IMG/VR virus record: IMGVR_UViG_3300047311_000323 | Span: 32,001 to 96,000 of that record | Length of the DNA: 64,000 bases | Source of the DNA: a virus | Direction: 5' to 3' (one strand) | In this document: positions 13,858 to 31,976 of the stretch, in pieces | Numbering within the stretch: position 1 is the first letter of the stretch | How the letters are laid out: each line of letters starts with the position of its first letter | Made by a program: the position numbers and the translations under genes | Notes under the pieces: model-generated | What the model saw: the letters and a program-made list of their open reading frames with translations, nothing else | Told to the model about the DNA's origin: nothing | Databases searched by the model: none

Positions 13858-13898
13858 TGTTATACTCCTACTACTATATAGAATTATTACCTAAAAAG

Positions 13899-13925
13899 AA
13901 AAGACCCGCCAAAAGCGGGTCTTTT
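13899..13925. terminator. Rho-independent terminator (bidirectional shape)
   Basis: AAAAGACCCGC-CAAAA-GCGGGTCTTTT, just downstream of 13948-15642. Confidence 0.85.
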
Positions 13926-13947
13926 TGAAATTACTTATTGAATCAAG

Positions 13948-28676: not shown

Positions 28677-29224
28677 TCGTTCTTTGGGGCCTTGGATTTT
28701 ACATCTAGGGCCTTAAAGAGTTTATTATGAGTGCTTCTCAAAAAGTCTTTCTGAGTATCAGATAGCTTGTCTTTATCATTACGCAGTTGCTCATGAATTT
28801 GATGAGATAGTTCTTGAGAGTCTTTAAAGTCTAATGGCATCAACTGCAATTCGAATTGGACGCCATCAATATCTAGATTAACATCAGTTACTCCAGGATA
28901 TTCAAGTCCGCAATCATTGGTATCCTTTTTTTTAGAGTCTTTTACTTGGCCTTTGAATACTTTCTTAAGCAAGTCCACAACTTCTTTAGGATTGTATTCT
29001 TGAGAGAAGAAAAGCCTACCTCTGGCCAAATCTGGAAGGATGCCGGGATCGGATTCACGATCTCGCAGCATTTTCTTTTTGATGCTGAGGTATGGCTTTA
29101 AGTTGGTTTCCAACAGAAAATCATGTGGTGGCAAGTCTGCAAGCTGAGACTGCACGTGCTGCATAGCCTTGTTCAAACTGGGCATGAGGTGCATGTATTG
29201 CTTTCGAAGTTTCTTGGAGTCCAT
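28673..29224 (-). CDS. RelA/SpoT-like small alarmone-synthetase (SAS)-fold nucleotidyltransferase
   Basis: LKPYLSIKKK (RxKxxxSxxxK-like), DLARGR, Y loop, ELQL, ELSH. Start moved to ATG 29224, which follows the ATAW-N5-YATW motif at 29230-29243 and avoids overlap with the HNH gene. Confidence 0.7.
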   Translation of the reverse strand: MDSKKLRKQYMHLMPSLNKAMQHVQSQLADLPPHDFLLETNLKPYLSIKKKMLRDRESDPGILPDLARGRLFFSQEYNPKEVVDLLKKVFKGQVKDSKKKDTNDCGLEYPGVTDVNLDIDGVQFELQLMPLDFKDSQELSHQIHEQLRNDKDKLSDTQKDFLRSTHNKLFKALDVKSKAPKND

Positions 29225-29258
29225 GATTATATGCGGGGTTATAGACAGGCGAGGTTTC

Positions 29259-29936
29259 ATGACTAAATTACGAGATTTAACGGGCCAAAGATTCGGAAGA
29301 TTAATTGTTTTGGAGCGAGGTGAGAATCTATCACGCCCACCTTGTAAATCACATCCTAATGGAAAATCTAGAATCACATGGGTTTGTCAATGTGATTGCG
29401 GTACGATCAAAACAATTTCTGCTGAAAAGTTGTATCACAAAAAGAGCCCAACACGTTCTTGTGGTTGTTTAAACACTGACACTAATAGGGCTAAAGCTTA
29501 CTTAATGCATAAAGCCAATACTAAGTATCATCCTAGTATTGGAACAGCGCGCGGGATCTGGGCTAAAATATACAAAGATGGCCCCGATGGCCTTTCTTTT
29601 GAAGAGTTCTATGATCTTTCTCAAAAACCATGTCATTACTGTGGCTCTAAACCAAACAATTCTCAAAACAGTCCTATGAGTGATAAGTTAGCCTCAGCCT
29701 TTGCTAAAGAAAATGGCACATTTGTATATAATGGATTAGATAGAATAGATAGCACCAAACATCATACATTAGATAATGTAGTACCATGTTGTAAATGGTG
29801 CAATTATGCAAAAAGAGAGCGTACAACAGAAGAATTCAAAGCTTGGGCTAAACGATTACATGACAATTTGTTCATACAAAAAGAAACGGACTCTAATTGC
29901 TTAGAGTCCGTTTCGGAACTTGCTTTAGTCAGTTAA
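29259..29936 (+). CDS. Free-standing HNH homing endonuclease
   Basis: DLTGQRFGRL...WVCQCDCG...SCGC N-domain; CHYCG...GLDRIDS...NVVPCCKWCNYAK core. GAGG SD before ATG 29259. Confidence 0.88.
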   Translation: MTKLRDLTGQRFGRLIVLERGENLSRPPCKSHPNGKSRITWVCQCDCGTIKTISAEKLYHKKSPTRSCGCLNTDTNRAKAYLMHKANTKYHPSIGTARGIWAKIYKDGPDGLSFEEFYDLSQKPCHYCGSKPNNSQNSPMSDKLASAFAKENGTFVYNGLDRIDSTKHHTLDNVVPCCKWCNYAKRERTTEEFKAWAKRLHDNLFIQKETDSNCLESVSELALVS

Positions 29937-29941
29937 GCTTA

Positions 29942-30955
29942 TTAGGCTCCGACGACTACGCTCTTTCTACCAGCGGCACAGCCTCTTGGGTTAACAATGG
30001 CGATACCAATGATTTCGCTAACTACCCAACCCAACTTTAGTTGTTTTGGTTCATCGGCAGGGAGTACTTCAATATCCTGACGGATTGGCATTACTCCTAC
30101 AAATTCTGGATCGGCTACACCGTAGATGGTTCCAGGTGGAACAATCTTGCTGACCATGATGTCAGTACCCCAGATGTGGGCGTATAGACCGGTCTGTAGA
30201 ACTTCTCTCATAGTTACTGGATCGAAGTCACCACCACCAACACCTTGTCCACCACCAGAACCCCACTTGAGGATGTCAGTGAACTCGTTGATGTTCATGA
30301 AGTACTTAGTAGTTACTAAGTCCCAACGATCAATCTGTTGCTTGATTTCGACCAAGTCTCTCTTTAGAAGACCTGCATCGGCGATGTCAGTGAGAGTGTT
30401 CTCAACTGAGGCAGCGGCATCCAAGGCGGCAAAGATGTTTGCATCTTCTTGAGCCATGATTTCCTGACGTGCCTTTTGAACAGCTCTGTCAATGACGTTG
30501 AATCTACGACGCTTGACTTCAGCGATACGAACCGTTGGGTTCGCGTAGATTTCAAACTCTGGAACAACTACACGGTCACCGAATACACGGGACTCTGGAC
30601 CAGTACCGTTGGAAGAGATAACAACTGCGGCAACGTCGATATCTCTATCGTAAGTTGGAATTGCTCCCTGTGGTAGTGGGTCAACAACCAAGGCACGACG
30701 AGCGATACCATGGTAATCGAGGTTTCTACGGATTGGGTTTGCCATAGCCTGAGCTAGAGCAATCTTTCCGTCTTGAGTCATGATTGCGCGAGTGATCAAT
30801 TCATCACGCTTCTCATCGCTCAATGCTGGTTGACCAGCTAGTCCTTGGTTTGCAGGGACATTCTCTTCGAGAATGGCTGCGTACTTTACCAAGGCTTGCA
30901 ATGCATCCTTGAAAGATGAGGCGTTAATTTCGCCCTTGCCGCTAAACATATTCAT
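29942..30955 (-). CDS. Major capsid protein (HK97-like fold)
   Basis: 337 aa, strong AGGAG SD, highly biased codons; pattern DYxGIARR..VVDPLPQGA...ExxxIxIVNPRG; position next to decoration protein and protease. Confidence 0.85.
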   Translation of the reverse strand: MNMFSGKGEINASSFKDALQALVKYAAILEENVPANQGLAGQPALSDEKRDELITRAIMTQDGKIALAQAMANPIRRNLDYHGIARRALVVDPLPQGAIPTYDRDIDVAAVVISSNGTGPESRVFGDRVVVPEFEIYANPTVRIAEVKRRRFNVIDRAVQKARQEIMAQEDANIFAALDAAASVENTLTDIADAGLLKRDLVEIKQQIDRWDLVTTKYFMNINEFTDILKWGSGGGQGVGGGDFDPVTMREVLQTGLYAHIWGTDIMVSKIVPPGTIYGVADPEFVGVMPIRQDIEVLPADEPKQLKLGWVVSEIIGIAIVNPRGCAAGRKSVVVGA

Positions 30956-31013
30956 AGTTTCTCCTAGAAAAATTTGCCAGTCTTACCAGCTTATATTCTT
31001 ACGTTAAAAGGGT

Positions 31014-31076
31014 GAGAGGGGTCCTTGCGGACTTCGAGAATGACAAGCTTGCGCTTGGCATCTCCCCCAGCCTCTC
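31014..31076 (-). ncRNA. Candidate cis-regulatory structured RNA (three-way junction) in the capsid leader
   Basis: P1 GAGAGG/CCUCUC; P2 GAGAUGCCAAGC-GCAA-GCUUGUCAUUCUC; P3 GUCC-GCAA-GGAC. Both loops are GNRA on the coding strand. Confidence 0.6.
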
Positions 31077-31099
31077 GGCCAGAGAAGTTTATTCAGCTA

Positions 31100-31828
31100 T
31101 TAGCCGATTGGTGGTGCAAAGTAGATGGTTGCAAACGTAAAGGCTCTTGGTTGAACCGAGGATACGTTTCCAGATGGGCTATTCAAAGCAGCTACTAAGT
31201 AGTTTGGAGTGGTTACCAAAGAACCGTTGGTGTTGAACTCAACTAGAGAAGCAACGACTGGGGCGCCGGAGAGCTTGTTACCAGCAGCATTTGGAGTCAA
31301 AAGACCCAAACTGGTGAAGCTTAGTGCAGCACCGACTGTGAGGGCAACGTTAGTTGGAATCAAACCGTTAGCGGCAGTGTCTACTGCGTCTAGGGAGACT
31401 GCGTAGAGACCTGGCTTGTCCCAGCAAGTTGTCTTGCCAGAGCCGGTTGAGGTGTGAGGTCCGAGGACGGCTCCACCAGTTACTTGCTGTCCGACAGCTC
31501 CACCAACAACAGATCCAAAGAGAGTTCCGTATCCGGTAATACCGTCATCGGAGAGCATCAATGGACGAGATGCGTTAGTTAGAGAAGTCGATCCATCAAA
31601 CTTACGAGATACTGCTGGACGCTTAAACGTACCAGAGGTATTGACGTAACCGTCAAATACATCGTAAGCTGCTTGATCAAGACCTGCGGTTGTTACACCT
31701 GGTTGACCACTTGTAGTTACTGCGGCGAAAGATACCACTTCACCACCCTTGAGGGTCAAAACATCAGAGTCAAGACCGTCAAACTGACCTAAAGGCTGAG
31801 TGCCTGGTTGCAAAAGTTTTAGAGACAT
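31100..31828 (-). CDS. Capsid decoration/cement-like protein
   Basis: Immediately upstream of the MCP; strong codon bias; TGSGKTTCW..PGLY motif shared with 38342. Confidence 0.6.
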   Translation of the reverse strand: MSLKLLQPGTQPLGQFDGLDSDVLTLKGGEVVSFAAVTTSGQPGVTTAGLDQAAYDVFDGYVNTSGTFKRPAVSRKFDGSTSLTNASRPLMLSDDGITGYGTLFGSVVGGAVGQQVTGGAVLGPHTSTGSGKTTCWDKPGLYAVSLDAVDTAANGLIPTNVALTVGAALSFTSLGLLTPNAAGNKLSGAPVVASLVEFNTNGSLVTTPNYLVAALNSPSGNVSSVQPRAFTFATIYFAPPIG

Positions 31829-31976
31829 GGTTTTATCCTATTTAATCTATCAAATGCCCTTTGGGGCACGGTAACTTACACCTTTAACTTACAAAATTCA
31901 TAAAGCATACTCGTTTATTGATATGTTTTCAAATAAAAAGTTGCCTGTATTGCAAAGATATTGGGCTATGCCCAGA

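Follow-up and report, generated by a model that had tools for sequence, protein, structure and literature searches.

In phage T4, the leader of gene 32 contains a 5' pseudoknot that nucleates binding on an A/U-rich stretch reaching the ribosome-binding site. The RNA element described here is located in front of the major capsid protein (MCP) gene in the window (the whole stretch of viral DNA analysed, 64,000 nucleotides), and it resembles the T4 leader in that an H-type pseudoknot lies tens of nucleotides upstream of a start codon and is followed by A/U-rich single strand, and in that the element is single-copy, gene-specific and without an Rfam model. However, the downstream gene is a capsid gene instead of a gene for a single-strand-binding protein, no sequence similarity is found, one or two additional hairpins in the connecting loop of the knot turn it into a three-way junction, and a further conserved hairpin is located between the knot and the Shine-Dalgarno (SD) sequence. 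The likeness to an operator of the T4 gene 32 type is one of position alone (knot, A/U-rich strand, ribosome-binding site), as known here from sequence.

Other described RNAs share parts of this arrangement. As in the hammerhead ribozyme, three helices meet at one junction, but the CUGANGA / GAAA / UH core is absent, and the junction strands here are CUGGGG (paired in the pseudoknot helix, S1), GAA/AAA/AA, and A or C. The HDV-like (delta/theta) ribozymes have in common with the element crossing helices, a 5' strand paired across a second helix, and hairpins before the 3' closing strand; in contrast to these ribozymes, the P3/L3/P1.1 segment is absent here (0 nt), and no HDV-family model matches. 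A three-way junction with a 5'-flanking strand paired into it is also found in flavivirus xrRNAs and in the acceptor pseudoknot of plant-virus tRNA-like structures, and a further likeness is that both knot helices are able to form one stack of 12-13 bp. The 5' strand of xrRNAs, however, pairs into a different junction from that occupied by S1 here, and the element has no CCA end and no T-loop and occurs in the context of a bacterial dsDNA phage. The E. coli papBA operon, the RNase III sites of T7 and ompA-type 5' stem-loops resemble the locus in having a structured intercistronic region before a major structural subunit gene, and the hairpin proximal to the ribosome-binding site could here come to protect a 5' end. 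The structures in those systems are plain hairpins or RNase III stems, whereas the structure here is a sequence-conserved pseudoknot and cleavage is only proposed.

Giant phages need thousands of capsid subunits per particle, and control of this supply in uncultured ones is almost wholly unknown. The locus provides a strongly covarying pseudoknot RNA, absent from Rfam 15, that is dedicated to the capsid message. It is small (45-72 nt) and can therefore be tested directly for nuclease resistance, cleavage and protein binding.

Gene order and transcription signals

The window is part of a 198-kb viral record with an estimated completeness of 45%, and all genes around the element are on the minus strand. 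Six phage records bearing the element were examined (198-481 kb), and the relatives with a 91-100% identical capsid protein are on contigs of up to 481 kb. The element is framed by the following genes and signals.

29883..29914, minus strand: canonical intrinsic terminator 3' of the MCP gene, a 14-bp stem followed by a T run
29942..30955, minus strand: MCP gene (phrog_2522 major head protein, E 2.9e-81)
31100..31828, minus strand: upstream gene, 242 aa, capsid cement/decoration-fold protein by predicted structure
31904..31932, minus strand: sigma-70-like promoter match 5' of the decoration gene, TTGAAA-17-TATGCT, 9 of 12 positions, a consensus match only

The sole match of the MCP gene in the phage collection was the gene for the major head protein gp27 of phage G, and the gene order in phage G is identical (decoration gp26, then MCP gp27). 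The phage carrying the element is an uncultured, phage-G-like giant phage, whose host, to judge from MAG binning, may belong to Bacteroidota or be a gammaproteobacterium. The 242-aa protein had no match in Pfam or PHROG, no similarity to phage G gp26 by BLASTP, and no significant match in the PDB by Foldseek. An AlphaFold model built from 52 relatives reached a pLDDT of 73.8, and in a wide structural search with this model the best 13 matches were all phage capsid decoration or cement chains (Z 7.1-9.6, 107-157 aligned residues). On the basis of this predicted fold, the upstream gene encodes a capsid cement/decoration-fold protein.

The presence of a promoter-like site before the decoration gene and of a terminator after the MCP gene makes the two genes look like one transcription unit spanning the 144-nt gap between them (30956-31099). 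The capsid terminator itself sits within the 3' end of a convergent plus-strand ORF (29169-29936). The initial annotation regarded the gap as the longest in the head block, which is not the case, since the next gap (31829-31976) has 148 nt. The CATAT motif, which is recurrent in several other gaps, is absent from this one. Another motif, of the GGTAATAAT type, was found directly 3' of canonical terminators, both in the window (13858-13947, minus strand) and in capsid leaders of class c, described below (for example L014, L025 and L085); it is likely a promoter -10 element of this phage group.

Architecture and covariation of the element

The features of the gap are listed in the direction of the mRNA, from the decoration gene towards the MCP gene.

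31089..31096, minus strand: CUGAAUAA motif just 3' of the decoration-gene stop codon, kept in class a and class b leaders and in some of class c
31079..31084, minus strand: S1 5' strand CUCUGG of the pseudoknot helix, pairs with 31065-31070
31077..31078, minus strand: loop 1, CC, which is CC in most of 36 distinct sequences
31071..31076, minus strand: P1 5' strand GAGAGG, inside the S1 loop, pairs with 31014-31019
31065..31070, minus strand: S1 3' strand CUGGGG, pairs with 31079-31084
31036..31064, minus strand: P2 hairpin with a GCAA loop, about 11 bp, interrupted by a bulge and by a C.U mismatch
31033..31035, minus strand: GAA junction between P2 and P3, AA kept in at least 90% of sequences
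31021..31032, minus strand: P3 hairpin GUCC-GCAA-GGAC, covarying, loop sequence free
31014..31019, minus strand: P1 3' strand CCUCUC, pairs with the P1 5' strand
30991..31013, minus strand: 23-nt spacer, pyrimidine-rich and then A/U-rich (ACCCUUUUAA..GUAAG..)
30976..30990, minus strand: leader hairpin GCUGG-UAAGA-CUGGC, common to all leader classes
30956..30975, minus strand: A/U-rich stretch with a conserved TTC, then the SD sequence AGGAG (30961-30965)

The CUGAAUAA motif occurs even where a true terminator comes after it. According to the covarying pairs, the element is an H-type pseudoknot with a 6-bp S1 and with the P1 5' strand in the S1 loop. The P1 3' strand closes the knot 45-72 nt downstream, and the long connecting loop carries P3 and usually P2 as well. 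The initial annotation had proposed P1, P2, GAA and P3 as a three-way junction on the coding strand; this arrangement was found at the same coordinates, and all three helices covary in 36 relatives. In contrast, CUGGGG (31065-31070), which had been taken as an unpaired junction strand, pairs with CUCUGG (31079-31084) and forms a covarying fourth helix. In the family, P1 has 6-7 bp, S1 5-7 bp, loop 1 1-3 nt (mostly CC), and loop 3 at least 17 nt, while loop 2, from the P1 5' strand to the S1 3' strand, has 0 nt in 31 of 33 sequences. This is a sterically compatible H-type geometry, in which S1 and P1 would stack coaxially; in 28 of the 36 members, the two are able to stack as a helix of 12-13 bp.

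The MFE z-score of the gap was -0.47 for the coding strand and +0.20 for the opposite strand, which is not distinct from shuffled sequence. ViennaRNA is unable to score pseudoknots, and the minimum-energy fold that it gave for the element (-30.6 kcal/mol) was an extended S1 hairpin, CUUCUCUGGCC-GAGA-GGCUGGGGGAG, which is specific to the lineage of the window; the three-way junction scored -26.1 kcal/mol. Because of this alternative fold, the CUGGGG strand was examined in the relatives, and it was found to be paired with the pyrimidine strand 5' of P1.

Sequences for the comparison came from the capsid leaders of 80 viral loci and from further loci obtained by pattern scans. They were aligned as 34 distinct elements with MAFFT (alignment A1) and as 36 distinct elements with a covariance model (A2), and S1 was entered as a pseudoknot helix. 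Over the four helices, 94.6-95.6% of the cells were paired (A1/A2), and 17-18 of the 20 pairs changed on both sides. None of 500 column shuffles reached any of the five measures, and when the partners were moved by 1-3 columns as a control, pairing fell to 40-60%. In the 36 sequences, pairing was 93.4% for S1, 99.5% for P1, 96.9% for the base of P2, and 91.7% for P3. Changes on both sides were observed at four or five of the six S1 pairs (93-95% paired over the alignments), at five of the six P1 pairs, and at all four pairs of P3; the four basal pairs of P2, a helix of variable length, all covary as well. P3 is present in all relatives, and P2 is missing in 4 of the 36. G.U pairs are frequent in S1, and a U.G wobble at its fourth pair is kept in 30 of the 36 sequences. 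The covariation check that had been proposed for homologous MCP leaders thus turned out in favour of a conserved structure, and it confirms, at the level of aligned sequences, that the gap encodes a real, evolutionarily conserved folded RNA.

The S1 pairing of 93.4% on the mRNA strand dropped to 69.7% on the opposite strand. This loss argues that selection acts on the mRNA-sense RNA, as the initial annotation had suggested, and the same strand test ruled out a palindrome at the DNA level. The GNRA loops which the annotation had pointed out are indeed common in P2, but the P3 loop is not conserved. Conserved unpaired bases are limited to the loop-1 CC and to the AA between P2 and P3. Two other pairings were considered and rejected: the A-rich 5' flank and the U-rich tail, which might have formed an outer helix, showed no co-variation, and for a triple helix of the pyrimidine tail on the purine strand the required C/U register is not matched by the sequences. 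A leader peptide was also rejected, since a frame of 20 codons starts at an AUG within P2 of the window, whereas the relatives with a short P2 lack an AUG at this place.

In the window, model R1 run with the filters off found exactly one copy of the element; the model also found one in the window's own 198-kb record and one in each of five relatives (354-481 kb). In every genome searched, the element is located directly upstream of the MCP gene and downstream of the gene with the cement/decoration fold, and its assignment to the MCP leader held. Scans for more members with a 17-mer in metagenome contigs and a 15-mer in viral contigs gave nearly only chance matches; among 100 loci with the viral pattern, L321 alone was real. 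The Infernal search of Rfam 15 returned nothing on the element, either in the window at E-values up to 10 or in six relatives at E-values up to 1, which argues against a hammerhead and against any other known ribozyme or riboswitch. The element is possibly one of the 8,495 unnamed candidate structured RNAs of the 2023 IMG/VR csRNA catalogue (PMC10690425). From its sequence and setting, it is a variant, uncatalogued in Rfam 15, of a pseudoknotted phage mRNA leader, whose function we infer.

The initial annotation had also listed a riboswitch or a ribozyme as candidates and had compared the topology to that of a hammerhead. The latter resemblance is restricted to topology, since the strand in the position of the core belongs to a helix and none of the hammerhead models matches; the former candidates lost ground because no Rfam model matches, and the few conserved unpaired positions and the dispensability of P2 are atypical for either. 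A related explanation is that the element is a cleavage module. It would be a self-cleaving ribozyme of a new class, or else a tRNA-like pseudoknot in which RNase P of the host cuts where loop 1 meets P1; in both cases the co-transcript would be cut at a fixed point to give a capsid mRNA with a base-paired, decay-resistant 5' end. The stack of P1 and S1, at 12-13 bp in 28 of 36 members, would have the length of a tRNA acceptor/T arm, and the fold is compact, knotted and intercistronic. Furthermore, the bases just 3' of P1 are a purine and then pyrimidines (ACCC in the window), similar to the RCC determinant found in RNase P substrates, among them the 4.5S RNA precursor and the acceptor pseudoknot of TYMV. 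However, no ribozyme family matches, there is almost no conserved unpaired core, a T-loop equivalent is absent, ARAGORN finds nothing, and the tail is YY-rich and not CCA. The order of an HDV-like ribozyme fails as well, because nothing lies between the P1 5' strand and the S1 3' strand where P3/L3 belongs. We therefore regard a cleavage module as improbable.

Spacing, interchangeable cassettes and proposed roles

The hairpin GCUGG..CUGGC in front of the capsid gene was kept in all of 55 distinct leaders (97.9% paired); its tandem U.G/G.U wobbles are conserved, and its inner pairs covary. In the same 55 leaders, the hairpin is followed by an A/U-rich stretch, in which TTC is conserved, and by the SD sequence. 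A relative with 79% capsid identity (L402:1455-1500) has a variant GCUAGC hairpin and AGUAAUUCAC. The distance from P1 to the leader hairpin was 18-28 nt in 33 relatives, mostly 22-25 nt, while that from the decoration stop codon to S1 varied from 7 to 26 nt. Since the spacing is tight downstream and loose upstream, the knot appears to be positioned relative to the capsid side. The same variation in the distance from stop codon to knot led us to reject recoding of the decoration gene.

Another idea is an anti-SD switch, in which the pyrimidine-rich S1 5' strand or the P1 3' strand would pair with the capsid SD sequence when the knot is open and so turn translation off. UUCUCU or UCCUAG of the S1 5' strand is able to form 4-6 bp with CUAGGAGAA, but the duplexes are weak (-2 to -8 kcal/mol), and the duplex of an S1 strand with its own SD sequence was no better than those with swapped sequences (469 of 500 permutations were as good). 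The P1 3' strand likewise showed no co-variation with the SD sequence (84 of 500). The complementarity of the S1 5' strand to the SD sequence can be explained by the fact that both of its partners are purine-rich, and such a switch is highly improbable.

In other phages of the group, the slot of the pseudoknot is taken by different cassettes. The class b cassette consists of a covarying hairpin of 12-15 bp, a near-invariant UCUAUC and a short covarying hairpin; it was found at ten loci (L012, L017, L020, L026, L037, L051, L053, L056, L058 and L061), some 100 nt before the start of the capsid gene. The class c cassette consists of a canonical terminator, a promoter-like motif of the GGTAATAAT type and a short hairpin. 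Combinations were also observed: in L036 the knot occurs along with the class b hairpin, and in L403 a terminator and a promoter-like site are followed by a two-hairpin relative of the knot. The occurrence of three cassettes (knot, long hairpin, terminator-promoter) in one slot amounts to a natural experiment on one expression problem.

The anatomy of the gap and these interchangeable cassettes are what we infer a mechanism from, in which the knot would serve as a boundary for processing and stability, keeping the decoration and MCP messages apart and protecting them. We put this forward tentatively, as a possible reading. The element would mark a post-transcriptional boundary in the decoration-MCP co-transcript: the compact knot would cap the 3' end of the decoration message against nucleases, cutting would take place in the A/U-rich spacer, whose length is fixed at about 23 nt, and the GCUGG..CUGGC hairpin, which all leaders share, would then protect the 5' end of a stable capsid mRNA. 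Where related phages have a long hairpin or a terminator-promoter pair in this slot, those elements would be doing the same job. All of the cassettes place a stable structure 3' of the decoration gene, then a short segment that is single-stranded or a promoter, and then hairpins at the start of the capsid message, and the knot can therefore be read as one solution for making two separately stable messages. The covarying helices, the S1 pairing on the mRNA strand, the single copy, the apparent single transcription unit, the spacing on the capsid side, the swapped cassettes and the universal leader hairpin would all be consistent with such a boundary. Among the candidates of the initial annotation, a processing or stability element would thus stay the best guess, and a packaging-related RNA found no support.

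Two observations speak against a boundary. For a 3' cap, a plain hairpin would suffice, and the strict topology and the conserved CUAGCCGAGNGGCUGG go beyond that and hint at specific recognition. In addition, the structure in L403 would lie wholly in the capsid 5' UTR, behind the terminator and the promoter-like site. Since topology and sequence conservation exceed the needs of a 3' cap, an operator and the cleavage module discussed above stay in play.

By analogy with the T4 leader, a translational operator would be bound at the knot by a small ligand or by a protein of the phage, such as capsid or decoration protein not yet assembled, and this binding would tune capsid synthesis. Conservation in sequence as well as structure of the S1/P1 core, the loop-1 CC and the junction AA would fit with such an operator, as would the fixed distance of the knot from the leader hairpin and the SD sequence, the A/U-rich single strand 3' of the knot, and the occurrence of the element as a single, gene-specific copy. 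On the other hand, the SD sequence and the start codon are outside the knot, very few unpaired nucleotides are kept while P2 and the P3 loop vary freely, no riboswitch model matches, and sister phages do with a terminator plus a promoter or with a plain hairpin. It is therefore unlikely, in our view, that the knot is an operator.

The presence of a true terminator in the same slot of class c phages also bears on the possibility that the element is a transcription attenuator or terminator, in which the P1-closed branched stem and the pyrimidine/U tract would stop some polymerases before the capsid gene, possibly under control of late antitermination. In most members, the GC-rich P1 is followed by a purine and then by a pyrimidine-rich tract of 7-8 nt ending in UUU(U)AA, and L403 has a local hairpin plus UAUUCUUU within its promoter-led leader. 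However, the scan for promoters and terminators gave no canonical call of either kind for the pseudoknot itself, and the phage uses canonical terminators elsewhere. An intrinsic terminator is expected to have five or more U among the eight nucleotides directly 3' of a GC-rich stem. The eight nucleotides 3' of P1 in the window, which begin with ACCC, include four; the relatives range from 2 to 6 U, so that some of them would qualify, and L036 has no tract. Furthermore, no recognisable promoter lies between the element and the gene for the most abundantly needed virion protein, and efficient termination at this position would be self-defeating. Attenuation thus seems rather improbable. Of all these readings, a processing and stability boundary is the one that we tentatively prefer.

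The type of cassette changed at least seven times on the tree of the decoration protein and at least five times on the tree of the MCP 5' DNA. Across 80 environmental contigs, the capsid protein is 91-100% identical, and the adjoining decoration protein just 46-85%; the cassette in the gap between these two genes (29942-30955 and 31100-31828 in the window) is a mosaic. In one contig, which was binned with a Chitinophagales MAG (L404:960-1962), the match to the capsid gene is limited to residues 94-247, and a LAGLIDADG-like stretch (..MAVWFMDDGW..) is encoded directly upstream of it; the capsid gene of this phage probably contains an intron or a homing-endonuclease insertion.
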